Assembly: GCA_020724845.1 (NCBI GenBank)
Contig: DYGE01000001.1
Span: 122,664-186,663, forward strand
DNA length: 64,000 bases
Direction of reading: 5' to 3'
Origin: Candidatus Paceibacter sp.
Lineage (GTDB): Bacteria; Patescibacteriota; Minisyncoccia; UBA6257; 02-FULL-45-10c
In this document: in pieces, positions 3,469-60,462 of the stretch
How the letters are laid out: every line of letters starts with the position of its first letter
How positions within the stretch are numbered: position 1 is the first letter of the stretch
Translations under genes and position numbers: made by a program
Notes under the pieces: generated by a model
What the model saw: the letters and a program-made list of their open reading frames with translations, nothing else
The model's database searches: none
Told to the model about the DNA's origin: nothing

Positions 3469-3798
3469 AAAACCAAGAAGATGTCCTTTCTTTAGACCGC
3501 CTCCATCTGCTAAACATAACCAGAAAGTATCCTCTGTGCGGCAACTGACGGAATCCTGATTTGCTCGGTTCGTCCGCCAGCTGGCGGACGAAAATCAGGG
3601 TGAGACGTAGGCGGAGTTATCACCCCGTGTTGGAAGGCAGGCCGCTATGCTATAGCATAGCGGTCGTCGGAAACCTGGAGGTGTCCGAGACGGGGGTCGG
3701 GGTGAGAATCTGGGACGGTAAGAGGATACTTTCTGGTTATGACACTTTGTCCCCACCGCGCAGCCCGAGTCTAAAGAAAGGACATCTTCTTGGTTTTG
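3469..3798. repeat. Nested-palindrome element, copy 1
   Basis: A perfect outer inverted repeat of about 27 bp (accaagaagatgtcctttctttagac / gtctaaagaaaggacatcttcttggt) encloses conserved flanks. Inside those is a 20 bp inverted repeat cataaccagaaagtatcctc / gaggatactttctggttatg. The core shared with the copy at 60220-60462 is ctgtgcggcaactgacggaatcctgattt...aaaatcagg.tgagacgtaggcgg. The element lies between the mreB stop (3810) and the mrdA start (3428). Confidence 0.6.
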
Positions 3799-4856: not shown

Positions 4857-4863
4857 ATAAAAT

Positions 4864-9715: not shown

Positions 9716-10722
9716 TATCTCTTATTCAGAAGAGTTCTCTTGTAGACATCCAGATGGCTCAAGATAATGCCGGCGCCTTTGGCTACGCAAAATAGCGGCT
9801 CTTCGGCAATATAAGTTTCCACGCCAGTCATTCGCTTGAAGAATTCGTCAATGTAGCGCAATTGCGCTCCGCCCCCGGAAACGATAATCCCCTTTTCCAT
9901 GATATCAGCGACTAATTCCGGCGGAGTTTCGTTGAAAACGCTTTTTACTGAAGCAGCAATGTCAATCAAGTGCTGATTAAGCGCCTCGGAAATTTCATTA
10001 GAATTCACAACTATATCTTTCGGCAGGCCGGAAACCATATCCCGTCCGCGAATTTGGATCTCTAACTTTTCTTTGGATGGAAGCGCGGACCCGACTTCCA
10101 ATTTTATTAATTCAGCAGTTTGCTCTCCGATATGGAGCGAGTATTTTTTCTTAATATAATCCATAATCGCTTGGTCAAATTTATTGCCGGCAACCCTCAA
10201 ACTTGACCAGGCGACAATTCCGCCAAGGGAAATAACGGCTACTTCAGCGGTCCCGCCTCCAATATTAATAATCATATTGCCGGAATAAGAGTTGATCGGA
10301 ATGCCGGCGCCAAGAGCGGCTAAAAGCGGCTCTTTGACTATATAAGCTTCTTTCGCGCCGGCTTCTTTCGCGGCATTCATTATCGCTCTGCGCTCGGTTG
10401 GAGTAATCCCCGCGGGAGCGGAAATCACTACGTCCGGCCGGATTATATTAAACGAACCGGTAGCTTTGGCAATAAAGTACTTTAACATTGCCTTGGTTAT
10501 GTAATAGTCGGCAATGACGCCCTCTCGCAGAGGCCTGTAAGCGGCAATATCATCAGGCGTTCTGCCGATCATGTCCTTAGCTTCTCTGCCGACAGCCAGA
10601 ACGCCATTATCCGGCAAACTCAAAGCAACGATAGTCGGCTCGTTGATAATGAAACCTTTGCCCGGAACAAAAACGATGGTATTCGCGGTCCCGAGATCTA
10701 TTCCTATTTTTCTAGTAAACAT
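9715..10722 (-). CDS. Second MreB-like actin homolog (MreB paralog)
   Basis: IGIDLGTANTIVFV phosphate-1 motif and MreB-like length. This is the second copy in the window. Confidence 0.8.
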   Translation of the reverse strand: MFTRKIGIDLGTANTIVFVPGKGFIINEPTIVALSLPDNGVLAVGREAKDMIGRTPDDIAAYRPLREGVIADYYITKAMLKYFIAKATGSFNIIRPDVVISAPAGITPTERRAIMNAAKEAGAKEAYIVKEPLLAALGAGIPINSYSGNMIINIGGGTAEVAVISLGGIVAWSSLRVAGNKFDQAIMDYIKKKYSLHIGEQTAELIKLEVGSALPSKEKLEIQIRGRDMVSGLPKDIVVNSNEISEALNQHLIDIAASVKSVFNETPPELVADIMEKGIIVSGGGAQLRYIDEFFKRMTGVETYIAEEPLFCVAKGAGIILSHLDVYKRTLLNKR

Positions 10723-15832: not shown

Positions 15833-15864
15833 TGTTTATTAATTATTAATGATATTAATTAATT

Positions 15865-16476
15865 TTATTTTGAGTAATAGTCAACGACCATATTGACGTC
15901 AAATGGCACTTCCACTTCTTGCGGCAAAGCCACCATCTCTCCTTCCAACTTATCTTTATCCAGCTTCAGCCAAGTCGGAACTTCATATTTCTTAAGCCTT
16001 TCCGAAAGATCTTTCAGAGGGCCGGCATCATTGGATTCTTTTCTAATGCCTATTTTATCGCCTACTTTAACGATATAAGAAGGAACGGATACTTTGCGGC
16101 CATTCACGGTAACATGCCCATGCCCCGCAAGCTGCCTGCCGACAGATCTTGAGGGGGCGAAGCCCAAGCGGAACAAGACATTATCTAACCTGCTTTCCAG
16201 AAGCTGGATCATCACCAAACCGGTTACGTCGCTCTTTTTGGATGCCTCTTGAAACACTTTAAGCATTTGCGATTCTCTGATTCCGTAACTGAATTTGATC
16301 TTCTGCTTCTCATTCAGCTGCTGCCCCACTTCAGATGAGGAATGCCTGGCTTGCCCATGAAGGCCCGGCCGATGCGGCCGCCTTACCGTGGCGCATTTGG
16401 CAGAATTACAACGATGAGCTTTTAAGAAAAGCTTGGTTCCTAGGGCTCTTTCCTTTTTTTCTCTAGTATTAAACAT
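15865..16476 (-). CDS. rpsD: 30S ribosomal protein S4
   Basis: N-terminal Cys-containing segment and an S4 domain, in the conserved position between rpsK and rpoA. Confidence 0.85.
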   Translation of the reverse strand: MFNTREKKERALGTKLFLKAHRCNSAKCATVRRPHRPGLHGQARHSSSEVGQQLNEKQKIKFSYGIRESQMLKVFQEASKKSDVTGLVMIQLLESRLDNVLFRLGFAPSRSVGRQLAGHGHVTVNGRKVSVPSYIVKVGDKIGIRKESNDAGPLKDLSERLKKYEVPTWLKLDKDKLEGEMVALPQEVEVPFDVNMVVDYYSK

Positions 16477-16478
16477 GT

Positions 16479-16928
16479 TTAAACTCGTCTAACTTTTTTA
16501 GGCCTTGGGCCGTTATGTGGTATCGGAGTTACGTCTTTAATTGATGTTATATTAAAACCTTGATTTCCAAAAGAGCGAATGGAGGAATCACGGCCGCTGC
16601 CAACGCCGTTAACGTAAATATCCACATCCGAGAGTCCAGTCTTCTTAAGTTTCTCGGCAATTGCTGAAACTACTTTTGAAGCGGCGAAAGGGGTAGCTTT
16701 CTTCGGTCCGGAAAAGCCCAAAGATCCCGCGGAAGCCCAGGCAACGGTATTTCCCTGTTGGTCAGTTACCGTAATAATAGTGTTATTATACGAAGCTCCA
16801 ATATAAACATTGCCCCGGCCTAATTTCTTGCCGGAACCCTTAGAGGCTTTCGCCATAGTAGCCTCTAGCGCGTCTTTTTCTTTTAATACCTCCTCTTGAG
16901 TTTGTTGTGCTATTTTTTTCTTTCCCAT
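16479..16928 (-). CDS. rpsK: 30S ribosomal protein S11
   Basis: GNVYIGASYNNTIITVTD...PHNGPRPKKVRRV matches the S11 signature. Confidence 0.9.
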   Translation of the reverse strand: MGKKKIAQQTQEEVLKEKDALEATMAKASKGSGKKLGRGNVYIGASYNNTIITVTDQQGNTVAWASAGSLGFSGPKKATPFAASKVVSAIAEKLKKTGLSDVDIYVNGVGSGRDSSIRSFGNQGFNITSIKDVTPIPHNGPRPKKVRRV

Positions 16929-16995: not shown

Positions 16996-17379
16996 CTACT
17001 TCAGCTCAACCTTTCTCTTTCCACTGCCGGCAGTCTTTCTTACGTTGCCTCGCACGGTTCGAGAGTTAGTTTTAGTCCTCTGCCCTCTGACAGGCAAATT
17101 TCGCATGTGCCGAATCCCCCTATACGCTTTCAAATCCTTCAGGAGATTGATATTTTGTTTGACAACCTGGCGCAACTCTCCTTCAATCTTATAGTTTTTT
17201 TCTATAAACTCTTTGATCTTGCTAACTTCATCCGGGGTTAAATCTTTCGCCCGCTTATCCGAATCAATCTTGGTCGCGCCTAAGATTCTTTTAGATAAAG
17301 TTGGGCCGATACCATAAATATAGGTCAGAGACACCTCCACCTTTTTATTATCTGGTATATTTATTCCTGAAATTCTCAT
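16996..17379 (-). CDS. rpsM: 30S ribosomal protein S13
   Basis: MRISGINIPDNKKVEVSLTYIYGIGPT matches S13. Confidence 0.9.
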   Translation of the reverse strand: MRISGINIPDNKKVEVSLTYIYGIGPTLSKRILGATKIDSDKRAKDLTPDEVSKIKEFIEKNYKIEGELRQVVKQNINLLKDLKAYRGIRHMRNLPVRGQRTKTNSRTVRGNVRKTAGSGKRKVELK

Positions 17380-17397
17380 GTTGCTTGTAACTTATTG

Positions 17398-17511
17398 CTA
17401 TCCCTGCCTTTGTTTATGTTTTTTAATTTTGCAAACAATATAAACCCTGCTTTTTCTTCGCACGACTTGGCAATCTTTGCATATTTTTTTTACTGATGCT
17501 CGTACTTTCAT
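17398..17511 (-). CDS. rpmJ: 50S ribosomal protein L36 (37 aa); below the ORF-track length cutoff
   Basis: Hand translation gives [37 protein letters not shown], the L36 zinc-ribbon pattern. The gene sits between infA and rpsM as in the canonical order. Confidence 0.8.
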
Positions 17512-17920: not shown

Positions 17921-18000
17921 GTCAACCCCACACATAACTTAGGCCACATGAGGCAAAACAACTCTTGGAGTTGCTAGTCTAAGTTATGTGTGGGGTCAGC
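17921..18000. repeat. GTCAACCCC-foot hairpin repeat H1
   Basis: gtcaacccc followed by a 17 bp arm ccccacacataacttag, a 35 nt loop and the arm ctaagttatgtgtgggg. It is intergenic, just upstream of infA. Confidence 0.6.
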
Positions 18001-18047
18001 CCCTTATGCAACAAAGAAAAATCGGCATTTTTGCCGATGTATTAATA

Positions 18048-19127
18048 TTATTCCCGAACCACTAATCCCTTAGCCGCTTTAATGGTTACTTCCTTAAGCC
18101 CTCTTCTAACCTTGAAAGTCATTTCTTGGCCGACAGGCGCAGCGCGTATTCTTTCTATCGCCTGCCAGGATCCTTCTACCGGCTCACCGTCAATTTCCTC
18201 AATCAAGTCCTTCGGCTCAAAGCCGGCTCTTTCCGCCTCCGAATTCGGGAAAACCTGGATAACCTGTGCCGGAACGTTACCGCACTTAATATCGCTAGGA
18301 CAATTAAAGTGGACGCCTAGTCCCAAAAATCTCCTTCGATGTATAGTATCAATTCTAAATTTATCGCCGCTGATAACCGAGAGCTTCAAGAACGATTCTT
18401 TTTCCAAAGAATATTTTTCAGTGCCGGCGAGCGACTCCCTATCGGCAAATGTTCTTATGAAAACATCGTAGGCTTTTCCCGCATTATCAAATGACACGTC
18501 ACCTTTGTACAAAACCTTGCTCTTAAAAGCCGGCACTAAAGAAAGCAGCAAGTATTTGTATCCCTCGCCGTCCGCAAAAAATCCATGAACCAGCTGATCG
18601 CCCGCCTTAAAACCGGAACGGTCCGCCCAGCTTCCTTCCGTGACCGAACTAACCTTTGCGGAACCGATTTCTACCGGAATTTGGCTAAAAACTAGCTGCT
18701 CCAGCAATTCCTTGCTTGGGAAACTGTATGTTTTGACTTTAAAATCCTTCGGGCTATAGAACGCCAGCCGGGCATCTTCCCGCAAAGAAGCAAGGCGCGC
18801 GGATACGTCGGTTTCTGCCGGAACAACTTTGCCGTTGACTGCCAGCAGAAGGTCTCCGGCGCGAATATTTTCTCGAGAGAGATCTGACATATCATCGCCA
18901 GGCTGTAAATTGCCAAAATCGGCGTACCTGGAAGTTTCTTGAGGGGCTGCCTTCACGGCGGACAGGCGTAAATTAGAATTCTCTAAAACAAGGCCGATCT
19001 GTTTACGCAGGATATTCGCTTTCTGTTCCTGATTCAACGAAACGTGCAGCTGACGCGACTTCACGCGCATGGAGGCGCAGCCGCTGAAAACAACAGTAAG
19101 AGTAACGGCAACCAAGATTCTCTTCAT
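18048..19127 (-). CDS. Putative lipoprotein with PDZ domains
   Basis: The lipobox-like signal VVFSGC and two PDZ-like GD..LL/I motifs. Confidence 0.4.
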   Translation of the reverse strand: MKRILVAVTLTVVFSGCASMRVKSRQLHVSLNQEQKANILRKQIGLVLENSNLRLSAVKAAPQETSRYADFGNLQPGDDMSDLSRENIRAGDLLLAVNGKVVPAETDVSARLASLREDARLAFYSPKDFKVKTYSFPSKELLEQLVFSQIPVEIGSAKVSSVTEGSWADRSGFKAGDQLVHGFFADGEGYKYLLLSLVPAFKSKVLYKGDVSFDNAGKAYDVFIRTFADRESLAGTEKYSLEKESFLKLSVISGDKFRIDTIHRRRFLGLGVHFNCPSDIKCGNVPAQVIQVFPNSEAERAGFEPKDLIEEIDGEPVEGSWQAIERIRAAPVGQEMTFKVRRGLKEVTIKAAKGLVVRE

Positions 19128-19198
19128 TTCCTTTTCTCCTTTTCAAAAGATGGATACTGGCTGTAGGTTAATACAAATTATTCTTTTCGTCAACCCCG

Positions 19199-19327
19199 CA
19201 CCTTTGCGAAATAGAAATCTCCACGGGCTTCGATTTAGATAATCCCAATAGATATGTGGCATATTGACTGCTTCGGGGCTCTTTTCTGTATTTGTACTGA
19301 AAAGCAATCTCGCAAAGGTGCGGGGAA
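19199..19327. repeat. GTCAACCCC-foot hairpin repeat H2
   Basis: gtcaaccccgcacctttgcga ... tcgcaaaggtgcgggg with a loop of about 88 nt. It is an inverted homolog of H3. Confidence 0.6.
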
Positions 19328-19383
19328 ACTTTAAAAACAAAAAAGCCGCGTATTTACGCGGCGCGCCATAAAATCAGGGCTGG

Positions 19384-19541
19384 CTACTTTTTAGGGAGAA
19401 ACGGCAAAAGTAATCTCAAAAGATCCATCAGATCCCCAAAAACCTTTTTAAACCAGGGCTTGATCACCCAATAGAATACGCCCAAAGACAGAACGACACC
19501 CATCCCAAGCCCCACAAGAAGAAGGACCAAAGAAGTGAGCA
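19384..19541 (-). CDS. Possible small membrane protein (52 aa)
   Basis: Hand translation gives MLTSLVLLLVGLGMGVVLSLGVFYWVIKPWFKK.... There is a GAGGAA upstream, and a hairpin-plus-T-run terminator downstream at 19347-19372. It is below the ORF-track cutoff. Confidence 0.3.
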
Positions 19542-19666
19542 TGCTGTTCCTCAATGCGTGGAATGATGTACTGAGTTAAATAATATCCGAAATATCCAGC
19601 GGTGTCAATCTCTTGATTAGCTCCCCAACCCCTTCCCGCATTTTATACCGGAAGGTTCCGCTAATA

Positions 19667-21316
19667 TCACTCAACAGTAATGTTAATCTTGTCAGGATTT
19701 GTTGGCACGGTCTTTACCCAAAATGGCCATAGGGATATCGTCGCGCTTTCCAGGCCGGGCAAGGAAAAGACCGCGGTTTTTAGTTCTGTTTCTGATTTCC
19801 CTAAAATCCTGGACTGTAAATCATCAATATCAATGCGCTTTGCAAGGACCGCCTTGAAATCCACCGGGAAAGACAGGATGCCTTTTCCGAAATCAACCCT
19901 CGCCAGCCCGAACTCAATCTCCGAAGATCGGATGTCAAAATCTTCCCCATTGTCTCTTTTCGCTCTTAAAGCTAGCAGTTCCTGCAAGTCCTCTTCCTTG
20001 AAAGCCACCGCAGTCATTTTTGCTTCCGTAAAAATCCCAAATTCCCCATTCTCATCCGCCTCTTCATCAATTGCCTGCTCTAGCACCTCATACTCTGTTG
20101 CGCCATCAAGTACTTTGAACTCTTGGGGAATTTGAGTTAGCAAAGCGGCTTTTAGCCCACCCTCCAGCTCGTCCCCAGCTTTAGATCTTGCCTGGGCAAT
20201 ATCTTCGGAAGTCGGATAAGCAACTTCTCCAATAAAGCCTCCGGACATGTCGCCAGTAGATTCTCCATAAAAAGACTGATATTTGGGCGTTCCTTTAAAT
20301 CCGGGGATAGTAAATAGTTTCACCGGACCGATGTTAAATTCCGGCCCCGGCTCGTCGGCAATAACTTCCGCGTCAATGTTAGAAGGCACGATCTTACCTT
20401 CAATGATTTTGGCTCCCGGCACGGTTATGCCGTCAGCTAACCTATACATTTTTCCATCCGGACTTATAAAACGGGTTCGCTCAACCAATGGCTGCGGATC
20501 GGAACTGTAGCTGTTGTATACGGTAATTACGCCAGTCGCGTGCCGTTCAACTTGGCGCCTGCCAGTCGCGGGAAACTTGAGATGAAGATTCTTGCTTTCC
20601 GAAAAAATCTGGTTCGGAATACTCATGCTCCCGACATCTAAACCTATGCCGGTGTTGGTGTTGATGGAATCATTATAATTCCAATCCTTGGTCTGTGCCA
20701 CGATAGTAACCGCGGCCCGCGGCAAAACTACGGCTCCCGCCCAGCCGGCCAAAGCCAAAGCGGCGGCAACGATAAATATACTCAACCAGCGAGAGCTTGG
20801 CAAAGATAATTTAGGCATAGAAATTTTCGGCAAAGGCAATCGTCTTCCTTCCGTTGGCTTCTTTTCCTCCCCCTTTGACAGCTTGCCAAAAATAGTGAGC
20901 GGGCTCACCGGAGAGATAAATGGCTTTTCAGCTTCCGCTTCAATCGCCTTCGGCTCCTCCGCTTCTTCAACTTCCTCTTCCTGGAAAACTTTTGCTACCG
21001 GCTTTCTTTTCTTGGCCTTGCCTGCTTTTGGGGCGACTATGTCGGAAAACTGGCGCTTATTCTTAGTAAAGAATGGATTAACTGCTGACAGGCCGCTCAT
21101 TTCAGCTAATTCGATGACATGATCATCAACTGATTCAATAGAAATTTTTTTATCTAAGGCGTCGGCTTCCCGTTTCAAGAGGTGAAAATTACTCAAAGAC
21201 TCTCCTAGATGAGAAAACCTGGGTATGCTTAAAATAACCTCGTTATCAGGAGTATCGATAATTTTCTCAACGATGACCGCTACCTCATCGCTTTTGTTAA
21301 CTGAAATTTTCTTCAT
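19667..21316 (-). CDS. Bitopic membrane protein with a large extracytoplasmic domain; function unknown
   Basis: K/E-rich cytoplasmic N-terminus, one TM helix (WLSIFIVAAALALAGWAGAVV), then a roughly 330 aa outside domain. Confidence 0.4.
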   Translation of the reverse strand: MKKISVNKSDEVAVIVEKIIDTPDNEVILSIPRFSHLGESLSNFHLLKREADALDKKISIESVDDHVIELAEMSGLSAVNPFFTKNKRQFSDIVAPKAGKAKKRKPVAKVFQEEEVEEAEEPKAIEAEAEKPFISPVSPLTIFGKLSKGEEKKPTEGRRLPLPKISMPKLSLPSSRWLSIFIVAAALALAGWAGAVVLPRAAVTIVAQTKDWNYNDSINTNTGIGLDVGSMSIPNQIFSESKNLHLKFPATGRRQVERHATGVITVYNSYSSDPQPLVERTRFISPDGKMYRLADGITVPGAKIIEGKIVPSNIDAEVIADEPGPEFNIGPVKLFTIPGFKGTPKYQSFYGESTGDMSGGFIGEVAYPTSEDIAQARSKAGDELEGGLKAALLTQIPQEFKVLDGATEYEVLEQAIDEEADENGEFGIFTEAKMTAVAFKEEDLQELLALRAKRDNGEDFDIRSSEIEFGLARVDFGKGILSFPVDFKAVLAKRIDIDDLQSRILGKSETELKTAVFSLPGLESATISLWPFWVKTVPTNPDKINITVE

Positions 21317-21338
21317 TCTGTTAAAGATAGAAATCGTT

Positions 21339-22604
21339 TTATGTTACTAACCACCTCACTCTCCTGTTAGCCAAATGGCTCATCTTATCATTCTGCGGCA
21401 GGAAATTTATCTCGAAAAAAGCCGACAGCAAGGAGAACAGATTCCTTACCCTGACCGTTTTTTTCAATTGTACATCATATCCCAGCTTTTCAGTAATAAG
21501 ATTTGTGGATAAAGGAACTAGTTTCAATGATTTCTCAAAGCGGCTCTGAAATCTCCCGGAAAATACGATCGGGGGCATGGTAAAAAAGGAATTTACATAC
21601 ACCAAAGACACGCCGTCATTCGCGAGCGTCTCCAACCCGTTGGCGAATAATTGCAATTCCTTCACTAGGATATTTTCAAACCTTCTAAGAAATACCTGGG
21701 AAGCGTTATCCTCGGCATAATTTTGGATTATCTGCCTGGCGACCGGCGGATCAACTCGAAAATATCTGGCCAGCAAGTGGACTAAATCATTCTCCCCCCA
21801 GCCAAAATTGTCTAAATGAGCCAAGCGGCCATTTAAAGCGGAAAAAACAGAGGTTTGGTTTGGGAAAAGATTCGCCACTAAGAATTGGTTTTCCTCGAGA
21901 ACACGATTCAGCACATGGCTCATTGCCGTGCCCGATTCGGTTATAAGCGCTATATTGTCTTTCGGCAAAAGATCGCGTATTCCGCGCATCAACTCCCTAA
22001 TAATGAAAGTCTGGCTGAAAAATATTTCCACGGATTTCGCTTTGAAGCCGATTGGATTGACGATCTTGTGGCCGTCCAGCTTGATGCCGCGGATCCGGAC
22101 ATCGCTTAGCAGAACATCCACGTCATCAATATTCATTTTTCTGGCGACTCTCAATCGCTTGCGGTCAAAAAATCTCCAAATGGCCTGGGAAATCAAATTA
22201 TCAATATCCGCCTCATCAATAGTCTCTTTGCGATTCGGACGGACTAAAGAAACCGATGAATGGATCGTGGTGGCAAAGTCAGAATCTAGACTTAAAATAA
22301 TCTTATACCTCTCCAGCTTGCGGACTTTTTTCAGGCCCGCCTCCAGCTCGCGCAAAATTCCGGAGATGTTGAAATCCGCTACAGGAAGGATCCAATTTTT
22401 TTTGATATAAATTTTCCTGCGCTCCAAGCTAGCCTTTAAAACAGTTATTTGCACGTAATGATTCAGGACTTCTATGAGAAGGTAATTATCTCCGTATAAA
22501 AAGTGCAGAAGATGCTCCCTAGTCCGATTAAAACCCTTCTTCAAAGAAGAAAGAATGAGCGGAGTATTCTCCCTAATCGGATTTATGTAATTTAAGTCCA
22601 ACAC
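21339..22604 (-). CDS. Hypothetical protein, possibly a degenerate actin-fold FtsA/PilM-like protein
   Basis: Only weak resemblance to actin-like phosphate motifs (ILSLDSDFATT, LITESGTAMS). The call is speculative. Confidence 0.3.
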   Translation of the reverse strand: MLDLNYINPIRENTPLILSSLKKGFNRTREHLLHFLYGDNYLLIEVLNHYVQITVLKASLERRKIYIKKNWILPVADFNISGILRELEAGLKKVRKLERYKIILSLDSDFATTIHSSVSLVRPNRKETIDEADIDNLISQAIWRFFDRKRLRVARKMNIDDVDVLLSDVRIRGIKLDGHKIVNPIGFKAKSVEIFFSQTFIIRELMRGIRDLLPKDNIALITESGTAMSHVLNRVLEENQFLVANLFPNQTSVFSALNGRLAHLDNFGWGENDLVHLLARYFRVDPPVARQIIQNYAEDNASQVFLRRFENILVKELQLFANGLETLANDGVSLVYVNSFFTMPPIVFSGRFQSRFEKSLKLVPLSTNLITEKLGYDVQLKKTVRVRNLFSLLSAFFEINFLPQNDKMSHLANRRVRWLVT

Positions 22605-22649
22605 CCTTAATTATACCATAAAAACAAAATCGGCTCGCCTTGAGCCGAT

Positions 22650-23297
22650 TCAAACCTTGCGAGCCAGTATGGCGCGCGATAATTCGTCAAATTTAACGTC
22701 CGAGTTAGCTATTTGATACATAATCCCCTTGGTAGCATGCCAAAGCCCGAACAAATGCCCTTGTTCGTGGGCGGTAACCAAGGCCAGCTTCAAGCGATAA
22801 TCCAGGCGGCTAAAATCAGTTACTGGTAGCGCGTACCCGTTAATGGATTGCGCGTCATCGGTCCCCACAACCATCACTCCGTTGCCAGCGGCTTTACCCT
22901 TATGTATAGGCGCAAAGCCATTACCGGTGAGCATCAGGCCGCTCAAAAACAGACTGACGTTTGTCCTATCCTCGCCGCGAAGCAAGATCGCTTCTTCAAA
23001 CAAAATTAAATCCAGCTCCTTTTTGCAGACTTGATAGAAAAAAGATACTTTCGCGAGCGTTCTCAAGAAAAAAATCCACGCTTCCGCAAGGAAATCCCTT
23101 TTCCAATGCTTAACCTTGACGCGGTCAAGATCATATCTTAGCATCAGCCCGTTCTCAACTTGATATATGCGCATCACCTCTTCCAAAATATCTTTTGGAG
23201 TAACCTTGTGAGCATACAAATCTTCTCCCGCTTTCGCGTCCACATAAACAGTAACTGTCCTAAGCAGCCCCAAAGGACTGTAGTCGCTATCAGGCAA
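22650..23297 (-). CDS. Metzincin-type zinc metallopeptidase (archaemetzincin/M54-like)
   Basis: The extended zinc-binding motif HEQGHLFGLWH (HExxHxxGxxH) lies near the C-terminus of the 215 aa protein. Confidence 0.5.
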   Translation of the reverse strand: MPDSDYSPLGLLRTVTVYVDAKAGEDLYAHKVTPKDILEEVMRIYQVENGLMLRYDLDRVKVKHWKRDFLAEAWIFFLRTLAKVSFFYQVCKKELDLILFEEAILLRGEDRTNVSLFLSGLMLTGNGFAPIHKGKAAGNGVMVVGTDDAQSINGYALPVTDFSRLDYRLKLALVTAHEQGHLFGLWHATKGIMYQIANSDVKFDELSRAILARKV

Positions 23298-23364
23298 CTA
23301 TCCCCCGTATTTAGCTATAAAGAATCGTTATCTGTAAAATAACTCAATATCCAGAGCGAGTCAA

Positions 23365-23398
23365 AAGAAAAATAGTAAAAGCTCCGATTACTCGGAGC
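23365..23398 (-). terminator. Intrinsic terminator after the TelA-like gene
   Basis: Hairpin gctccgagtaatcggagc followed by a T-run on the minus strand. Confidence 0.55.
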
Positions 23399-23408
23399 TT
23401 GTGTAAAG

Positions 23409-24485
23409 TTAAGAATCCTGCCCGCCGTCCACGACCTCGGCGTCCACGACATTCGTCTTGTCCACCTTTTCGTTTTTCGGCTTCACCTCTTCCACTATCA
23501 CTTCGCCTTCTTCCCGGTCTCCATCTCCATCCTGATCGGCGCCACCCTTGTCCTTGTTGGGGCCGGTCAGCTGCTTCATGTTATCCTTACGCTTCTGCTT
23601 GAACTCCAGCAGTTCCTTATCCAGCGTCTTTCTGCCCTGGTCCAGCAGCTGGAGCATTGCCCCGGAGGTGATGGAATACTTATCCACCAACTGCGCCGCC
23701 TTAACCGAATGGTTGATCGCCTCGAGAGAAGCAATGAACACTTCGCTCAAAACACCCCTAGCGGCGAACATGGCTTGGCTCGTCTTAGTGAGCTCGCGCG
23801 CGGTATCCCGCAAAGCGCTCATCTCGCGCTGCGCCTGGGTGAAGTCATGATATTGCTTCATGCCTTGCCGGAAAACAGTGAGGCCGGCAATCGCCGAACG
23901 CCTCAACGTTTCCAGAAGCGCGTTGCCAATCACGATATTGCCTTTAAGGTTGTTGAGGATATCCTGCTTCTGCTCTTCTCTTTCCTCTTCTGTCAGCGCT
24001 TCAAACTCCTCGTCAAGCAGCTGCACCACCTCATCAAAGATCTCAATTCCAGCTTTCTCCGCCATGTAATTCTGAAGCTCTTGAGCGCTCCAATTTTCCT
24101 TTTCAGCGCGCTTGATGTCCTCTTCCAATTGCTGAAGCTCTTCTTTCTTTTTGATCGTAACCTGCGCGATAGTACGCAACGCTTCCTGGGTATTGTTCAG
24201 ATTCCCTTCCATCTGAGACTCCATCATGTTCATGACATCCGTCTCTTCCATAATGTAACGAGAAACCCGAGCCGGGAGTGCGGGCATCCAACTCTTAGGA
24301 GTAACTTTGGCTAGGGCTTTTGCAAGGATACCCCTGCCGTTACCACCATCCAAATTCAGCGCCTCTTTGATATCATCATTGATGCCCTGAAGGTTAGTAC
24401 CGCTCTCTTGCAACTTCTTGACAGCGGACCGCAAATCCGCATCCGACTGGATCTTCTTCAGCTCCTTCTTTTGGTTCTCGGACAT
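23409..24485 (-). CDS. Coiled-coil stress-type protein, TelA/PspA-like (toxic anion resistance family?)
   Basis: About 360 aa, strongly helical with heptad repeats, and a strong AGGAGG RBS before the MSENQKK start. The gene has about 57% GC against roughly 45% in its surroundings. The family assignment is tentative. Confidence 0.4.
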   Translation of the reverse strand: MSENQKKELKKIQSDADLRSAVKKLQESGTNLQGINDDIKEALNLDGGNGRGILAKALAKVTPKSWMPALPARVSRYIMEETDVMNMMESQMEGNLNNTQEALRTIAQVTIKKKEELQQLEEDIKRAEKENWSAQELQNYMAEKAGIEIFDEVVQLLDEEFEALTEEEREEQKQDILNNLKGNIVIGNALLETLRRSAIAGLTVFRQGMKQYHDFTQAQREMSALRDTARELTKTSQAMFAARGVLSEVFIASLEAINHSVKAAQLVDKYSITSGAMLQLLDQGRKTLDKELLEFKQKRKDNMKQLTGPNKDKGGADQDGDGDREEGEVIVEEVKPKNEKVDKTNVVDAEVVDGGQDS

Positions 24486-24583
24486 CGTGCCTTCCTCCTT
24501 CTTCCTTTTACAGATTTTAACTTCTTGATGCTGGTCATATATTAGCATATTACTTAAAAGGCGTCAAGGACATTCAGGCCCAA

Positions 24584-24609
24584 AGAAAAACCACCCTGTG
24601 TCAGGGTGG
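24584..24609 (-). terminator. Intrinsic terminator
   Basis: Hairpin ccaccctgacacagggtgg followed by a T-run on the minus strand. Confidence 0.55.
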
Positions 24610-24620
24610 CCCGATAAGAG

Positions 24621-24869
24621 TTATCGGAAGAAAGTGTTGCCGTTCCGCACCGCATACCAGATGTAAGCGAGTACGAGAACAACCGCTAAAGGAAGGGCAA
24701 ACGAGGAGAATAAGCCAATCACCAGAGCCAGCGCCCAGAATACTCCGTAAGCGCTGACTAAGAAGAGAATGGCCCGCATCAGCAAGCCGCCGGAGGATCC
24801 CTTCAGCAGGTACTTGAGAAGCGCCAAAACGAGCGGATTCAGTAAGAGCTTACGCAGGATCGGAGGCAT
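24621..24869 (-). CDS. Small two-TM membrane protein (82 aa)
   Basis: Two hydrophobic helices. It lies in the GC-rich cassette and overlaps the upstream ORF by 20 nt. Confidence 0.4.
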   Translation of the reverse strand: MPPILRKLLLNPLVLALLKYLLKGSSGGLLMRAILFLVSAYGVFWALALVIGLFSSFALPLAVVLVLAYIWYAVRNGNTFFR

Positions 24870-25200
24870 TGCCCTCCGCGCCTCCTTTGTCGATCTTGGT
24901 CTCCTCAGCGGTCGTCTCGATCACCTGATCCGTCTGACCGACCTCTTTGACGTAGCCCTCCAAAGCCGCCCTGGCGCCGGCGACAACCGACTCCACGGCT
25001 TCGCTGTGGGTCTGGCCCACCTTGCGAAGCGGCTCGTAACGCCCGTAGAGCAGGCGCTTCAGCTGAAGGTTCGGATCCACCGAACGCTTCGCCGTCTCCA
25101 CCACTTCGGCGCCGGCTCGCTTCGCGAGACCGAGTATGTCCTGTCCGACTTTCAGCGCCGCCTGTCCGAGCGATTCCTTCCCGGGTCTTCCTCCCGTCAT
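24850..25200 (-). CDS. Small soluble Ala/Gly/Val-rich hypothetical protein (116 aa)
   Basis: GC-rich coding region; the AAAGGAGAGG RBS sits 7 nt upstream of the ATG. Confidence 0.4.
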   Translation of the reverse strand: MTGGRPGKESLGQAALKVGQDILGLAKRAGAEVVETAKRSVDPNLQLKRLLYGRYEPLRKVGQTHSEAVESVVAGARAALEGYVKEVGQTDQVIETTAEETKIDKGGAEGNASDPA

Positions 25201-25262
25201 ATTCTCACCTCTCCTTTGCAGTTTCCACTAGCTGTCAAACTATGCTGCTTTGCATATACTAA

Positions 25263-25298
25263 CAAAAAAGCCATCTCCCGTCAAGAGCGAGAGATGGC
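25263..25298 (-). terminator. Intrinsic terminator
   Basis: Hairpin gccatctctcgctcttgacgggagatggc followed by TTTTTT on the minus strand. Confidence 0.55.
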
Positions 25299-25314
25299 TC
25301 GGTAATTTCCAGCG

Positions 25315-26130
25315 CTACCAACGCTTCCAATCAAAGACAGCCGCGGTTACTAAACTCTGAAGCTTCTCAAGTTCAAAATACTTGGTGCTCTCCTGAAAAA
25401 CTTGCTCAACCTCAACAGCGTTCCCGATCTTCAGCGCGCACTCGGCTGTTAAAACTATGACGCCATCATCAAGCAGACGACTCTCCCTTTTAACCTCAAA
25501 ATGGTGCTCCAGGAATTTCCTATCGCCTGATCGAATGGCGACCAATTGCTTGATGCGCAGCCGATCTTTTTCGTCAACTTTCAAAATAGTCTGCAGCATA
25601 ATCTTATAAGATACCGTACGGCTTTTAAAAGCGCCTAAAAATCCTCCTTCCCCGCAGCTGCAGGATATGGTCTCCTCCGATAAAACCGCCCACTCGGTGA
25701 AAGAATTAAGAAGAGCAGCCAACGTAGGATTGCTCACCCTTTTACCGGCGCTAATTTCTCTTGGCGCGGCTGGATTTTTCCAATCAAGATAACTCGCTAT
25801 ATCCGCTACCACAGATCCAGGCGAAGGCAGCTTAGTGGCCTTATCCCAGGCAATCTTACGATTAATTAAGTCGTCATTCAGATACCTAATCGTTTCTGCC
25901 TGCGCCTTGAGCGCTGCATAAAACATCACCAGAAGATAAGAAGTGCTTGCGTTCTCTTTGCAAAACCTCTTGATCTTCCCGCAAATCCGCTGCAGCCTCC
26001 GGATTGACTTATGGTAGTCAACGAAATCCCGGGGCAGATCTTTTTGAGCGAGCTTAACCTGATCTGGCGCCGCTTGGCCGTTTGTCGATTTCGGTATTCT
26101 CCCCTCTATATCTCCACCATAGTATACCAT
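25315..26130 (-). CDS. Hypothetical protein
   Basis: A 271 aa ORF containing a CSCGEGG cysteine cluster; no family assigned. Confidence 0.35.
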   Translation of the reverse strand: MVYYGGDIEGRIPKSTNGQAAPDQVKLAQKDLPRDFVDYHKSIRRLQRICGKIKRFCKENASTSYLLVMFYAALKAQAETIRYLNDDLINRKIAWDKATKLPSPGSVVADIASYLDWKNPAAPREISAGKRVSNPTLAALLNSFTEWAVLSEETISCSCGEGGFLGAFKSRTVSYKIMLQTILKVDEKDRLRIKQLVAIRSGDRKFLEHHFEVKRESRLLDDGVIVLTAECALKIGNAVEVEQVFQESTKYFELEKLQSLVTAAVFDWKRW

Positions 26131-26132
26131 TC

Positions 26133-26738
26133 TTAACCCTCCGGATCCGATTCAGATTCAACAATCTTCTTTGGTTTGCGCGCGGTAAGTTCATGGCGCA
26201 GCTCCTTAAAAGGAAAAAACTCCTGGCCATCAAGCGAATGCGATTTTAGCAGTTCATGGCATCGGAAATACACGAGACTGTCAGCTTGGTAAATAATCGC
26301 AGTCAAAACAACTGTTGCGATGAATGTTCCCATGCCACCGAAAAACCAGAAGGCGGCATCTCCTAGAAAGAAGCCCATTTTCAGATACAAGGATACCAGA
26401 GAAATACTGACCAAGGGGTATGAAATCCTTTGAAGGATCGCCCAGGGCTTCGCTTTTTCAGCGAGAAAATCAGCTAATTCTCTCAACTGGCCCTCGTTGA
26501 AAGCCCGTAAATTCTTTCTGCGCACCCCCTCAAAGTGGCGCGCCGTTTCAATGAAAGCTTTCACGAATTTTTCCTTACGCTCGCGCAATTCTCCGCTCAT
26601 AACCTTTATTGCGGCTATCCTCCGCGTCCGTTCGTTGCCCTCTCTCACGCTTCGCAAAGTCTCCAACAACTGCTCGCGCTCCCTCTGCTTGACCAGATTG
26701 GCTTCCGGCCTTTGGACCATAGCTTGCTCGCCTGGCAT
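26133..26738 (-). CDS. Membrane protein with a cytoplasmic helical N-domain and a C-terminal TM bundle
   Basis: The 201 aa architecture is shared with the ORF at 27003-27659 and may be paralogous. Confidence 0.4.
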   Translation of the reverse strand: MPGEQAMVQRPEANLVKQREREQLLETLRSVREGNERTRRIAAIKVMSGELRERKEKFVKAFIETARHFEGVRRKNLRAFNEGQLRELADFLAEKAKPWAILQRISYPLVSISLVSLYLKMGFFLGDAAFWFFGGMGTFIATVVLTAIIYQADSLVYFRCHELLKSHSLDGQEFFPFKELRHELTARKPKKIVESESDPEG

Positions 26739-26797: not shown

Positions 26798-26950
26798 ATT
26801 GTAAAAGGTCAACCCCGCACCTTTCAAGGATTGCTTTTCAGAATAGACGCTGAAAAGAGGATAACGATTTATCTATAACAATCTTTAACTAAAATACCTT
26901 ACTGAATTCACGTATGGGTGAATTCTTATCCTTGAAAGGCGCGGGTCAAT
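26798..26950. repeat. GTCAACCCC-foot hairpin repeat H3
   Basis: gtcaaccccgcacctttcaaggat ... atccttgaaaggcgcgggtcaat with a loop of about 105 nt. Confidence 0.6.
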
Positions 26951-36017: not shown

Positions 36018-36088
36018 GGCCCCACACATAACCGGAGTTAGCACTAAGTACGCAAACTTTACCGCTCTGGTTATGTGTGGGGTTGACA
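36018..36088. repeat. GTCAACCCC-foot hairpin repeat H4, in inverted orientation
   Basis: ccccacacataacc ... ggttatgtgtggggttgac. It lies in the divergent dnaG/rpmB intergenic region. Confidence 0.6.
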
Positions 36089-38854: not shown

Positions 38855-39445
38855 ATGATTTTTGGGGCACTGCTTTTGACAGTGGTACTGCCAGTGATAG
38901 GCATCACCGCTTGCGTCGGCATCCATCATTACAAAGAGAATAAACTGCTGGAAATTTTCTTGGTCATTGCCGAGAAATCAATTAACCAAAAAATCAAAGA
39001 TGAGCAGGCGGACAAAGCCATAAACATTCTGCATAACAACAAGAAAATACCCGCGCCGAATCCGATCCAGATAAACATCTACAACCCAGACGGAGCCATA
39101 GTGGCCTTTTATCTCTTTAAGGCCGAAATACGATACCTGCTGGATTGCATAGATAAGCGCCGAAATCAGAGAAAATACCTTTCCTCGCTGTCTCCCAGGG
39201 CTAGAGGTGACGTACTTAAATTCATTGATAACACAAAGAGATTTCTAAAATTCATTGACTTTGATCATATGGATTTTGAACTGCGATCCCTGTTTCTGCA
39301 CAAAACCTATCGCGCAACCGTGCTGATGTGCCGAAAAATCCCGGATGAAAACAATTATCCTGAGCTGGATTTCATCCCGCTTTTTGAAATTGTTGATAAA
39401 AGCCCCACTAGAACCGTACGACTACTGCCTTACTTCCCTACTTAA
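38855..39445 (+). CDS. Hypothetical signal-anchored protein
   Basis: N-terminal TM helix (196 aa). Confidence 0.35.
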   Translation: MIFGALLLTVVLPVIGITACVGIHHYKENKLLEIFLVIAEKSINQKIKDEQADKAINILHNNKKIPAPNPIQINIYNPDGAIVAFYLFKAEIRYLLDCIDKRRNQRKYLSSLSPRARGDVLKFIDNTKRFLKFIDFDHMDFELRSLFLHKTYRATVLMCRKIPDENNYPELDFIPLFEIVDKSPTRTVRLLPYFPT

Positions 39446-39518
39446 TCCCACACATAACTAAGGTTAGCGCCATAGGCGCAAGTTTTAACTGTCTTAGTTG
39501 CGTGTGGGATTTTTGATT
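39446..39518. repeat. Hairpin repeat H5 (cacacataac family, degenerate foot)
   Basis: atcccacacataactaag ... cttagttgcgtgtgggat. It sits between convergent gene ends and overlaps the last codons of the exonuclease gene. Confidence 0.55.
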
Positions 39519-51008: not shown

Positions 51009-52343
51009 TTAGACAATCACGCCTCCGCCAAGCATCATTATAGAATTTGAACCCTCCTTCGCTGAAGCTTCCGCCTTCGCCAAGGCTTCGGCGGACAGGT
51101 CGGCGGGCAAGTAAAACACCGCCGATTGCCCAGAGGCAACAAATTTTTGAGGTTGGCTAAATACAAGCTTGAATAAAGAATTATGAATCACGAATGATGC
51201 GGGAACTAGCGGCTGCCTATAGCGCACTCGCGCTAAAACTGGAACGCTTAATTCCTTATTCTTAATTCCCCTGCCGCCTGCCCGGCCAGGGGGCAGGCTT
51301 AATTCCATATTTACAAGATTCACATCTCTTAACTCAATCTCCTTTTTGTAAAGCATCGGGTCGTCCTCCGAAGCTATAACGACAGTATTAGTTTTCACAT
51401 CCTTGCTCGCCACATAAAATGGTTGTTGGTTATTAGTTGTCGGTTGTAAGTTCACCCCTATGCGCCTTTGGCCGATCGTATAAAAATACGCTCCGCTATG
51501 CTTTCCGACTGTTTCGCCAGCGGAATTCAAGACTAAGCCCATTTTTTCCGGAATGTAATTACCCAAAAAATCCTTAAGCGTAACCTGCCCAAGAAAACAA
51601 ATCCCCTGCGAATCCTTTTTCTCGGCGTTCGGCAAGCCAAATTTCTTTGCCAGCTTCCTCACCTCCGGCTTGGTATATTCACCAATCGGAAACAAACAAT
51701 GCCGTAGCTGCTCCTGCGTCAGCGTCCATAAAAAATAGCTTTGATCTTTATTTTTGTCTTTAGCGATATATAAAGAAAAAATATTTTGGGTCAATCTGCC
51801 GAATTGTCGTGGAGAAACTACGGAAGCGCCAAAAGATTGGTTTCCGCTGAAGGCGGAATTTTGGCGCTGAGGCGTAGCGGGCACTCGCCGCTGGAGCGAG
51901 TGAACCGCGGTTCTCGCAGACGATTCGACTGAGCGACTTCTGCCCAAGCGGACATAGTGCCCGGTCGCCACATAGTCCGCCCCCATTTCCAATGCCTTCT
52001 GCAGAAACAATCCAAACTTAATCTCCTTATTGCACATCACATCCGGATTCGGCGTAAGACCTTTGCGATATCCGTCAACCATATATTCAACCACTTTATC
52101 TTTATATTCCTGCTCCATGTCAAAAACATAAAATGGAATGCCTAAAACCTCCGCCGCTCTTCGCGCGTCCTCCGCATCCTGTTCCGCGCAACCGTCAACG
52201 TTGTAGCACTTTAAATGCGCGCCAACCACGTCAAAACCGCGCTCTTTCAAAAGCGCCGCCGCAACAGACGAATCCACTCCCCCGCTCATTCCCACGAATA
52301 CCTTTTTGATCTTTTTACTTTTTGGCATAGCTATAAAATACAA
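51009..52343 (-). CDS. mnmA: tRNA-specific 2-thiouridylase, with a low-complexity insertion of about 60 aa
   Basis: PP-loop VGMSGGVDSS, then CNKEIKFG, ATGHY and DQSYFL motifs. An Ser/Arg/Gln-rich insert lies between HYVR and DQSYFL. Confidence 0.8.
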   Translation of the reverse strand: MYFIAMPKSKKIKKVFVGMSGGVDSSVAAALLKERGFDVVGAHLKCYNVDGCAEQDAEDARRAAEVLGIPFYVFDMEQEYKDKVVEYMVDGYRKGLTPNPDVMCNKEIKFGLFLQKALEMGADYVATGHYVRLGRSRSVESSARTAVHSLQRRVPATPQRQNSAFSGNQSFGASVVSPRQFGRLTQNIFSLYIAKDKNKDQSYFLWTLTQEQLRHCLFPIGEYTKPEVRKLAKKFGLPNAEKKDSQGICFLGQVTLKDFLGNYIPEKMGLVLNSAGETVGKHSGAYFYTIGQRRIGVNLQPTTNNQQPFYVASKDVKTNTVVIASEDDPMLYKKEIELRDVNLVNMELSLPPGRAGGRGIKNKELSVPVLARVRYRQPLVPASFVIHNSLFKLVFSQPQKFVASGQSAVFYLPADLSAEALAKAEASAKEGSNSIMMLGGGVIV

Positions 52344-54431: not shown

Positions 54432-54471
54432 ACACCTAAATATAACCTATTTCCGGTCTGCAGGGTTAACC

Positions 54472-54499
54472 AAAAAAATATCCACGTCCGAAGACGTGG
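54472..54499 (-). terminator. Intrinsic terminator ending the GC-rich non-coding transcript
   Basis: On the minus strand CCACGUCUUCGGACGUGG is followed by AUAUUUUUUU. Confidence 0.65.
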
Positions 54500-55100
54500 A
54501 TGAAGGGGGTCGGAAAACGCACTTGGCGATCCTGAAAGGCGAGGTTTTCCCTGGCCTTAATCAAGTTCGCTTATCAGTATCCAGCTTGCCCCGATGTTAT
54601 GGGTAAGCGGGCGGGAATCAGATGTTGAAGGCCAGAGATCCGGCGCGCGCGATTGGCGCGCGGCCCATGGATTGCCTTCTTCCGAGGATTCCCACTGGAT
54701 ACTTGTCACCCTGCATTTCGCAAGGCTGCGTTTTCCGGTGAAGGTACGAAAGAGAAGTGGCTTTTGCCGGTGCTTGATTTACTCGCGTGCTTCAGACGCA
54801 TTTGCGAAGTAAATCCCGACAGGCCCGGATGTCGCGACACCCGAGACGCTCCATATGGGAACACAGCCCATAGAAGCGAAGCCGACCTGATGCGCCGAGG
54901 GAGCGAGTCACGGGGGATCGTGCCCGTTCCTTTGTACCCCACCAACTCCGCCTCAATTGCGGTAGCTGGACTCGGTGACCAGGTTCTAACCATCCCAGAG
55001 CGTTGTTGCGCCCTGGGTGCATTCTCCGCGGCGCCAGCCGACGCCCCCGTATCGGGAGGGCCAGCTCGTTCTGCGCCTGACCGGAGAAGATTTTCAAGGT
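54500..55100 (-). ncRNA. Candidate large structured ncRNA, or an unusually long attenuator-type leader, of about 620 nt; identity unknown
   Basis: About 58% GC against about 45% around it. It has no credible ORF in any frame; the six-frame ORFs here are Arg/Ser/Pro-rich artefacts that overlap on both strands. It is bounded by a consensus promoter (55108-55135) and the intrinsic terminator (54472-54499), and contains many local GC helices. Confidence 0.45.
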
Positions 55101-55107
55101 TAGGGAC

Positions 55108-55135
55108 ATTATAGCATAATAACAGAATCTGTCAA
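55108..55135 (-). promoter_or_regulatory. Consensus sigma70 promoter firing leftward
   Basis: On the minus strand TTGACA (55135-55130), a 16 nt spacer, then TGCTATAAT, an extended -10 (55116-55108). The -35 hexamer is supplied by the GGGGTTGACA end of hairpin repeat H6. Confidence 0.55.
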
Positions 55136-55215
55136 CCCCTTAGTAGAACTTCGGCTAGGCCGCCTTTAGCGGCCTTATCGCTGAAAGCCACCGAAGTTTC
55201 ACTAAGGGGTCAAGC
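55131..55215. repeat. GTCAACCCC-foot hairpin repeat H6
   Basis: gtcaacccc-ttagtagaacttcgg ... ccgaagtttcactaagggg-tcaagc, with an inner hairpin ggccgcctttagcggcc. Confidence 0.55.
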
Positions 55216-60045: not shown

Positions 60046-60219
60046 GTCTTACCTACTAAATATTTAACATCTATATAATAGCATACTTATATGAAAAGCG
60101 CAAGTCCCCACCAAGATTCGCGTAAGATCATCAAATAATCTGCTATCTTTTACGACTATATGTATTTTTTAAAATCACACATAGGATAACAGATTCCAGA
60201 AAAAATGTAAAGAGTCACA

Positions 60220-60462
60220 ACCACCAGAACCTATTTCAGCTGCACGCCTCCACCTGATAAACATAACCAGAAAGTATCCTCTGTGCGGCAACTGACGGAA
60301 TCCTGATTTGCTTGGTTCGCTTGCGAAAATCAGGATGAGACGTAGGCGGCGCTGATCGCAGGAATCAGCGAACGCTGGTGCCGGTAGGAGGATACTTTCT
60401 GGTTATGACACTTTGTCCCCACCGCGCAACCCGACGCAGCTGAAATAGGTTCTGGTGGTTTT
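60220..60462. repeat. Nested-palindrome element, copy 2
   Basis: Perfect outer inverted repeat accaccagaacctatttcagctgc / gcagctgaaataggttctggtgg. It has the same conserved flanks, the same 20 bp inner inverted repeat and the same conserved core as copy 1, with a different variable inner hairpin. It lies 18 nt 3' of the secF stop. Confidence 0.6.

Follow-up and report, generated by a model that had tools for sequence, protein, structure and literature searches.

Parcubacteria carry a previously undescribed family of structured, nested palindromic repeats that is modular in build and that we found in Harrisonbacteria, Wolfebacteria, and Paceibacterota. Three copies lie in the 64-kb stretch of DNA analyzed here (referred to as the window), and relatives hold one or two per 14 to 21 kb. 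Although Parcubacteria have among the smallest and most streamlined bacterial genomes, the repeat recurs approximately once per 10 to 20 kb of sampled sequence, even inside an essential gene for tRNA modification, mnmA. The family is real, structured, and modular, and it is present in mnmA in both orientations.

RESULTS

Nested copies in the window

Copy 2 is a nested palindrome of 242 bases at window positions 60219-60460 (Table 1). An initial annotation had placed a second copy of a nested palindrome at 60220-60462 and had given it a 20-bp inner repeat and a core in common with copy 1; the second copy is real within our slightly different limits, and the inner stem, which is the same in both copies, has 21 bp. 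Copies 1 and 2 share three blocks of 75, 26, and 53 nt that are 96% identical (~170 nt overall). Within the window, a 21-mer from the core and a 17-mer from the 3′ flank occur only at these two copies, for which the chance expectations are 0.00 and 0.18, respectively. The core of copy 1 has a P3 tip that is extended by 16 nt (3573-3588) and a domain of ~100 nt (3615-3715) in place of P4, and the covariance model described below matches it only in part.

Both long copies are predicted to fold stably and better on the plus strand. Copy 2 reached −124.8 kcal/mol (z = −11 versus shuffles) compared with −118.6 kcal/mol for the minus strand, and copy 1 reached −167.1 versus −152.3 kcal/mol (z of about −11). 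Across copies of the family, folding z-scores ran from −9 to −11. The outer stem of copy 1 is bordered by AAAA and TTTT. The genes around the window copies are on the minus strand, the leading strand (GC skew, −0.14); all three copies run antisense to them, and none has a sigma-70-like promoter on the element strand. Across the family, orientation relative to neighboring genes is mixed. A rule tied to the replication strand was rejected: the window copies share one orientation, but related contigs L021 and L023 each carry both.

Table 1. Positions of the three copies and their parts in the window
Feature	Position	Strand	Remarks
Copy 1, long form	3469..3797	+	329 nt; in the mreB-PBP2 intergenic region, 12 nt from the mreB stop codon
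Copy 1, outer arms	3469-3497 / 3769-3797	+	29 bp, perfect; sequence unrelated to the copy 2 outer stem
Copy 1, linkers	3498-3514 and 3742-3768	+	
Copy 1, P2	3515-3535 / 3721-3741	+	Sequence identical to the copy 2 inner stem
Copy 2, outer stem, 5′ arm	60219..60243	+	25 nt; 100% complementary to the 3′ arm
Copy 2, outer 5′ arm, parts			~14 distal nt locus specific; ~11 proximal nt (TTTCAGCTGCA) semiconserved in the family (carrier alignment)
Copy 2, 5′ linker, conserved	60244..60261	+	(A)CGCCTCCACCTGATAAA; makes up the 5′ side of the carrier's asymmetric internal loop
Copy 2, inner stem P2, 5′ arm	60262..60282	+	21 nt; closes the core; all 19 modeled helix-1 pairs covary
Copy 2, core three-way junction	60283..60386	+	Center of ~104 nt; matched by the covariance model at 147 bits
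Copy 2, core, 5′ parts in order	P3 hairpin, ~60300-60336		J GTG; P2a CGGCA/TGCCG; AACTGACGGA; P3 hairpin with GCTTGG bulge
Copy 2, core, 3′ parts in order	P4 hairpin, ~60346-60377		GAGACGTAG; P4 hairpin, loop CGCAGGA; GGT
Copy 2, inner stem P2, 3′ arm	60387..60407	+	21-bp stem, one G·U
Copy 2, 3′ linker, conserved	60408..60435	+	ACACTTTGTCCCCACCGCGCAACCCGAC; 3′ side of the internal loop; the "flank" of the initial annotation
Copy 2, outer stem, 3′ arm	60436..60460	+	Followed by TTTT; 19 nt from the secF stop codon (opposite strand)
Copy 3, short form	51790..51937	+	Core and P2, no carrier; 89 bits with model R1, 127 bits with R2

A covarying three-way junction at the core

With a core covariance model, R1 and then R2, we collected 12 copies from 9 contigs. 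They define a core of 148 nt that forms a three-way junction with a closing stem of 19 to 21 bp. In the 12-copy alignment, standard pairs fill 96.6% of the pair cells, and double-sided changes are seen in 46 of the 54 pairs of this new and well-supported model; the alignment was fitted to the model, and these covariation figures lean toward it. None of 500 shuffles reached the observed values, and sliding the pairing partners by 1 to 3 columns left only 33 to 42% paired. An earlier and independent RNAalifold run on a MAFFT alignment had found compensation in 33 of 63 pairs. Compensatory changes above controls, as in a conserved structured RNA, are thus present in the model-fitted alignment.

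The unpaired bases are also conserved. CGUG, AACUACGGA, a UUGG bulge, GAGGCGUAG, and the CGCWGGA loop of P4 are invariant in the junctions and loops, across lineages whose proteins are only 55 to 70% identical. The modeled strand has 20 G·U versus 7 A·C pairs, and the model scores 127 to 135 bits on that strand versus 10 to 21 bits on the other. Therefore, one strand is structured, as RNA or as single-stranded DNA.

We then compared the element with known sequences and structures. Rfam 15 gave no match overlapping any copy, even at E values up to 10 (the whole window was searched at the gathering threshold and the copies by E value), and the new model has no counterpart there. The element was not found in phage, plasmid, and viral collections, a full-text search of the literature turned up no description of it, and neither outer arm had a spacer-like match to viruses. 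Signal recognition particle RNA, 6S RNA, hammerhead, C/D box, and kink-turn identities were judged by eye, and in each the defining motif fails, with no Rfam support. Six genome-contig matches to the pattern GCAACTGACGGN{30,60}GAGACGTAGG came from unrelated phyla, agreed only in blocks of 13 to 14 nt, and had no model score; we attribute them to chance, as we do L016 from the metagenome pattern scan. A mini-ORF in the 3′ linker (AGGAGG-13 nt-ATG, MTLCPHRA...) was rejected, as its frame is not conserved in homologues.

The carrier hairpin and nesting

In long forms, a carrier hairpin with a closing stem of 25 to 29 bp and a conserved, asymmetric internal loop bears the core at its tip. The first diverged core in a relative, found by BLAST against the contig of that relative (L004:16423-16570), has neither linkers nor an outer stem. 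It enabled a tolerant pattern, and a scan of metagenomes with that pattern yielded the full-length long forms in L012, L013, L014, and L015. All four are built alike: within an outer stem of ~25 bp, the linkers (CGCCTCCAyyTATAAA on the 5′ side and one containing GATCCCACCGCCAGCCCGA on the 3′ side) flank a covarying P2 that closes the core. CGCCT and TAAA of the 5′ linker are invariant in seven of seven carriers. In the outer stem, the proximal ~11 bp (TTTTCAGACAT / ATGTCTGAAAA) is semiconserved and the distal ~14 bp differs in every copy; conserved terminal inverted repeats are absent, the distal part being unrelated among copies 1 and 2, L012, L014, and L015. Short forms end in covarying P2 stems.

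The two modules also occur apart. On the related Harrisonbacteria contig L004, a carrier without a core (17366-17450) has a 15-bp outer stem, both the 5′ and 3′ conserved linkers, and a 6-bp mini-hairpin where P2 and the core normally sit. Cores without a carrier are found in mnmA, in L004, and at L021:17476-17629. From these carrier-only and core-only forms, it follows that the long form consists of a carrier hairpin with a core nested at its tip.

Inversion and possible recombination at long forms

Contigs L017 and L023 hold a long form at an orthologous locus, with the same outer arm (21 of 25 positions identical), the same adjoining TTGACA-N17-TATAAT promoter, and a flank that is ~80% identical over 190 nt. 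The interior is inverted between them: beside the shared arm, L017 has the reverse complement of the 5′ linker and L023 has the 3′ linker. Given this inversion and the two orientations in mnmA described below, the comparison shows an interior that can apparently invert, flipping between the inverted repeats that flank it. It also shows that the outer arms are inherited, drift at roughly the pace of coding DNA, and are not hypervariable.

The copies in L012 (8511-8744) and L013 (4926-5130) are identical from the upstream flank through the 3′ arm of P2 and then have different 3′ linkers, arms, and flanks, such that L013 combines the 5′ half of the L012 copy with a different 3′ half. Either two copies have recombined, or the assembly is chimeric at the repeat. 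Four contigs, L002, L003, L017, and L023, end within a copy.

A strong TTGACA-N17-TATAAT promoter in L017 and L023 is followed directly by a GC-rich region of ~490 nt (L017, ~100-590; L023, ~190-670) that is 82% identical between the two genomes versus ~75% for coding DNA. It is partly similar to the intergenic region between the EF-P and NTP-transferase genes of L004 (within 15842-16625), has no Rfam match, and carries over part of its length in L017 a called ORF of 144 aa without a Pfam domain. An element copy adjoins it in L017 and L023 and adjoins the similar region in L004. We consider this region a candidate large noncoding RNA.

Copies within the mnmA reading frame

Copy 3 sits within the mnmA coding sequence (51009-52343, minus strand), antisense to the gene. 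It is read through in frame as an insert of ~53 aa between ATGHYVRL and NIFSLYIAKDKNKDQSYFL, which splits the MnmA domain PF03054 (Pfam HUP domain) into two stretches and leaves the ORF open. This surface loop varies in length between 16 and 117 aa among 119 MnmA homologues, and by peptide comparison at least 17 of the 119 contain an element-derived peptide, 15 antisense and 2 sense. At the DNA level, the same loop holds an antisense core in L017, L023, and L024 (Wolfebacteria), a sense core in L019, L020, and L021, and a diverged relative of the element in L025; the ORF is intact in all seven, as in the window. A comparison of the DNA of MnmA homologues detected no element in the loops of L026 and L027, and the empty loop of L026 is not palindromic. 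Remnants were found as well: in L018, the first 11 nt of the element is kept and 138 nt has been lost in frame, and the P0135 MnmA retains 13 aa of the element peptide.

The invariant UGAGGCGUAG has stop codons in two of the three sense frames, and an excess of antisense copies is thus what a requirement for an open ORF would be predicted to produce. Between the window and L017, the mnmA copies are 92.6% identical versus 70 to 78% for the flanking coding sequence, and between the window and L023, they are 62% identical versus 72 to 79% for the flanks. Open frames across cores numbered 17, with ~10 expected, a weak excess that stems from the mnmA copies. A search of 1.84 billion representatives with the 53-aa insert peptide yielded one 52-aa protein, and a concatenated six-frame peptide query, intended to catch spurious ORFs annotated over copies, had no hit at E ≤ 1.

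Other palindromic inserts lie in frame in relatives. The mnmA gene of L021 (10001-11368) contains a second, unrelated one in the same loop, in tandem with the core copy at 10548 and within the ~150 nt upstream of it; it has a closing stem of ~18 bp (z = −4.9), and the loop here reaches 117 aa. An in-frame insert of ~89 aa within the NTP-transferase gene of L027 (9135-9440 in 8931-9935) is encoded by a large palindrome with a perfect 16-bp closing stem (z = −5) and no match to the core model. This insert, from a Harrisonbacteria relative, appears to belong to a further family of palindromic inserts that lie in frame.

Genomic context and boundaries

SecF and MnmA homologues assign the window to Candidatus Harrisonbacteria (Parcubacteria, CPR), and its nearest database relatives have only ~70% protein identity. 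SecF homologues drop from 100% to ≤70% identity, which leaves no near-identical strain pair for a clean comparison of empty and filled sites. The spacer between secF and a sigma-like gene, in which copy 2 lies, is 434 nt in the window; in L004, L005, L021, and L027, it is 75 to 238 nt with no model match, and a check of these empty sites for a preexisting hairpin found promoters, not palindromes. No direct repeat marks the boundaries of six long forms, and at mnmA only an ambiguous recurrence of GGCAGA was seen in the search for target-site duplications.

Long forms lie near stop codons, as at mreB and secF (Table 1) and in L015, where the distance is 53 nt; the L004 carrier starts 4 nt past the NTP-transferase stop codon and is followed by a T-rich tract. 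A terminator scan found nothing at copy 1 or copy 2, and no T-run follows the stem in L012, L014, or L015. L012 and L015 have a TATAAT-like hexamer 5 to 7 nt upstream of the outer stem.

No transposase, RAYT/IS200-like (Y1_Tnp), reverse transcriptase, or recombinase domain is encoded by the ~58 ORFs of the window. Mobility enzymes are likewise absent from the precomputed Pfam annotation of related loci except for one diversity-generating retroelement (DGR) in L004. The latter (18789-20175; bAvd and RVT_1) lies between NTP-transferase and Mur-ligase genes and is absent from the window. No copy has an RVT domain beside it; the L004 DGR is ~2.2 kb off, with two genes between.

Two further features of the window were noted. 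The two MreB paralogues, 5 kb apart (3810-4913 and 9715-10722), account for an 80-nt direct repeat of 74% identity between 4302-4381 and 10186-10265. Between the NTP-transferase and efp genes, a noncoding stretch of ~650 nt (54460-55100) has 56% GC versus 46% for the window, and neither Rfam (E ≤ 1) nor BLAST against the other loci gave a match; only a 153-aa ORF without a Pfam domain lies inside.

Small hairpins as a separate class

Another family in the window consists of small hairpins, each with a stem (CCCC...GGGG) of 18 to 20 bp, a loop of 27 to 96 nt, and a GTCAA foot (17921-18003, 19189-19325, 26808-26945, 55131-55215 [+], 36018-36087 [−], and 39444-39511). Those at 55131 (efp) and 36087 (dnaG, primase) lie between a TATA-like box and the start codon, which suggests 5′-untranslated-region hairpins. 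Those at 19189-19325 and 26808-26945 are inverted partners over 47 nt (79% complementary, 7.5 kb apart) and bracket ORFs at 19667-26738 without a Pfam match, which may form an island bounded by inverted repeats.

The initial annotation saw in the 3′ flank of copy 2, TTTGTCCCCACCGCGCA, a likeness to the small-hairpin foot GTCAACCCCGCACC. When the flank was aligned with the foot GTCAACCCC(GCACC), the best local alignments spanned 6 to 9 nt. Of composition-preserving shuffles of the flank, 22 to 56% matched or beat them, and 1 to 6% of random windows of the genome equaled or beat them; the likeness does not exceed chance, the outcome that the initial annotation had named as refuting the link. The flank of homologues in other genomes is GATCCCACCGCCAGCCCGA, and its "GTC" is thus not conserved. 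The topology differs as well: the GTCAA foot lies outside its variable stem, whereas the flank of the long element lies inside the outer stem. Run without filters, the 12-sequence covariance model gave the small hairpins only 14 to 18 bits on either strand alike, a score that a generic stem alone accounts for. The GTCAACCCC small hairpins are a class separate from the long element. The idea of a hairpin with a large conserved cargo nevertheless survives in part: the carrier-only and core-only forms bear out such an architecture, with a carrier from outside the GTCAACCCC family.

DISCUSSION

At about even probability, we propose that the element is a selfish, nonautonomous, structured mobile repeat, similar to the palindromic elements of Rickettsia (RPE), whose fold is recognized by a trans-acting partner. 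A factor encoded elsewhere would recognize this conserved fold in the modeled strand, be it RNA or single-stranded DNA. With the fold as the recognized part, selection would act on the element's own propagation or retention and not on its termini. Nesting of the core on the carrier tip, and of the carrier in a local stem, together with recombination between the long inverted arms, would then produce the appearance of a nested palindrome and the unrelated outer stems. Immediately past stop codons, the long forms are probably either tolerated or put to use as hairpins of the 3′ end. Multiple copies, contigs that end within copies, nonsyntenic sites, mixed orientation, in-frame insertion, deletion remnants, modularity, and inversion all argue for such a selfish repeat. 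So do the other palindromic families found in frame in mnmA of L021 and the NTP-transferase gene of L027, and the mnmA copies of the window and L023, which are less alike than their flanks and thereby point to exchange or replacement. The lack of a mobilizing enzyme or of a visible target-site duplication, and termini that are the least conserved part, count against it, as do the invariant unpaired bases in distant lineages and the long-form locus retained in L017 and L023. The high identity of the mnmA copies of the window and L017 would also be expected if the host kept the RNA under purifying selection. Insertion specifically at hairpin tips is not supported at the empty mnmA site of L026, which is no palindrome.

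Several of these observations bear on other explanations. A family of structured noncoding RNAs that work for the host (a protein-binding or sponge RNA, a ribozyme, or a scaffold), with the three-way-junction core as the active part, is possible but doubtful. On this account, the closing stems would only protect the core and so drift, the copies would be paralogous genes, and the mnmA copy would be nested in a tolerant loop. Very strong covariation, invariant unpaired nucleotides, and the one-strand bias in G·U pairs and model score are consistent with a host RNA, and so are conservation across Harrisonbacteria, Wolfebacteria, and Paceibacterota, an mnmA copy more conserved between the window and L017 than the coding sequence around it, the orthologous long-form locus of L017 and L023, and the promoter-like hexamers of L012 and L015. 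However, the window copies are antisense to the surrounding genes with no sigma-70-like promoter on their strand, and the copy density would be unusual for a trans-acting RNA. Both orientations in mnmA, one orthologous locus inverted, deletion remnants, nonsyntenic positions, and the replacement of P4 in copy 1 by an unrelated domain are also hard to reconcile with it. Less probable again is that the long forms are mainly cis-acting structures, either terminators or mRNA-stabilizing hairpins of the upstream gene, with an incidental interior. Their closeness to stop codons (copies 1 and 2, the L004 carrier, and L015), the AAAA and TTTT around the copy 1 stem, and the TTTT after that of copy 2 fit this account, but the terminator scan was empty at both copies, L012, L014, and L015 lack a T-run, and the invariant internal loop, the junction bases, and the mnmA copies would be left unexplained. 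The model of the initial annotation, in which the element is a GTCAACCCC small-hairpin member with cargo in its loop and a RAYT/IS200-like enzyme mobilizes both classes, we consider highly improbable. The two classes are alike in being hairpins whose stems vary and whose adjoining sequence is conserved, and the hairpin-plus-cargo architecture is real, but with a different carrier. The likeness of flank and foot is at the level of chance, the model scores are generic on both strands, and the classes differ in whether the foot falls outside or inside the stem. In addition, no Y1/HUH transposase domain occurs in the window, and the long elements are far larger than REPs and have no conserved foot of the GTAG/CGTC type.

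Tentatively, the core could be a new class of functional nucleic acid machine (a ribozyme, a protein-recruiting scaffold, or a recombination substrate) that is kept by selection in multiple copies, survives either way round in the reading frame of the essential gene mnmA, and spreads or switches by nesting at hairpin tips and by flipping between long inverted repeats. If the core is indeed a functional RNA or a recombination substrate, it would represent a new class, and the repeat would be a new type of structured mobile or invertible element and not decaying selfish DNA. The family also has practical effects: metagenome assemblies break at it, and it adds about 50 residues to predicted MnmA proteins.

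Comparison with known systems

REP/BIME, ERIC, and Correia repeats often lie at the 3′ ends of genes and can act as terminators or as RNA stability or processing sites. Like them, the parcubacterial element is multicopy, intergenic, and hairpin forming. REPs measure 20 to 40 bp, have a conserved GTAG/CGTC foot, and are associated with RAYT; the element described here is 148 to 329 nt, with no such foot and with no Y1_Tnp domain in the ~58 window ORFs. MITEs and Correia elements are marked by target-site duplications and by terminal inverted repeats that are conserved, whereas here the termini are the most variable part, no duplication was seen, and no insertion sequence was found.

The HEARO/OMEGA RNAs of IscB/TnpB, group II intron RNA, and the bridge RNA of IS110 combine a complex covarying fold with many copies, some of them without an ORF. 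The parcubacterial element resembles these mobile-element RNAs in its covarying fold, its many copies, and a conserved scaffold next to a variable segment. Unlike in those systems, the variable segment is a self-complementary stem and not a single-stranded guide, no IscB, TnpB, reverse transcriptase, or recombinase gene is adjacent, and there is no Rfam match. It also differs from retron msr-msd, DGR, and other reverse transcriptase-associated noncoding RNAs, as no reverse transcriptase gene adjoins its copies. With invertons it shares bounding inverted repeats (19 to 29 bp) and the occurrence of both orientations at the same place, including within an ORF that is open either way. However, the two orientations are found in different genomes and not in one population, no invertase is nearby, and the interior is a conserved fold and not an alternative coding sequence.

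The closest parallel is RPE. These interspersed palindromic repeats of Rickettsia are reportedly ~100 to 150 bp long, with a stable predicted fold, and are said to lie both between genes and in frame within them, where the host ORF stays open and the extra peptide is placed in a loop. RPE is not known to have a transposase. The parcubacterial element is likewise an interspersed, multicopy palindrome with a stable fold, of the same ~100- to 150-bp size range, that is intergenic or inserted in frame in genes and for which no transposase was found. It differs from RPE in its phylum, with no sequence relation known and none expected at that distance, and in having a conserved center with variable ends, a three-way junction, invariant unpaired bases, and heavy covariation. 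Moreover, it nests modularly in a carrier, its interior is inverted at an orthologous locus, and it occupies a single gene loop, that of MnmA, across many lineages and in both orientations. The family thus provides a second, phylogenetically remote example of RPE-style in-frame palindromic insertion, and the MnmA loop, with both orientations and remnants, offers a natural system for the spread, flipping, and decay of such elements.
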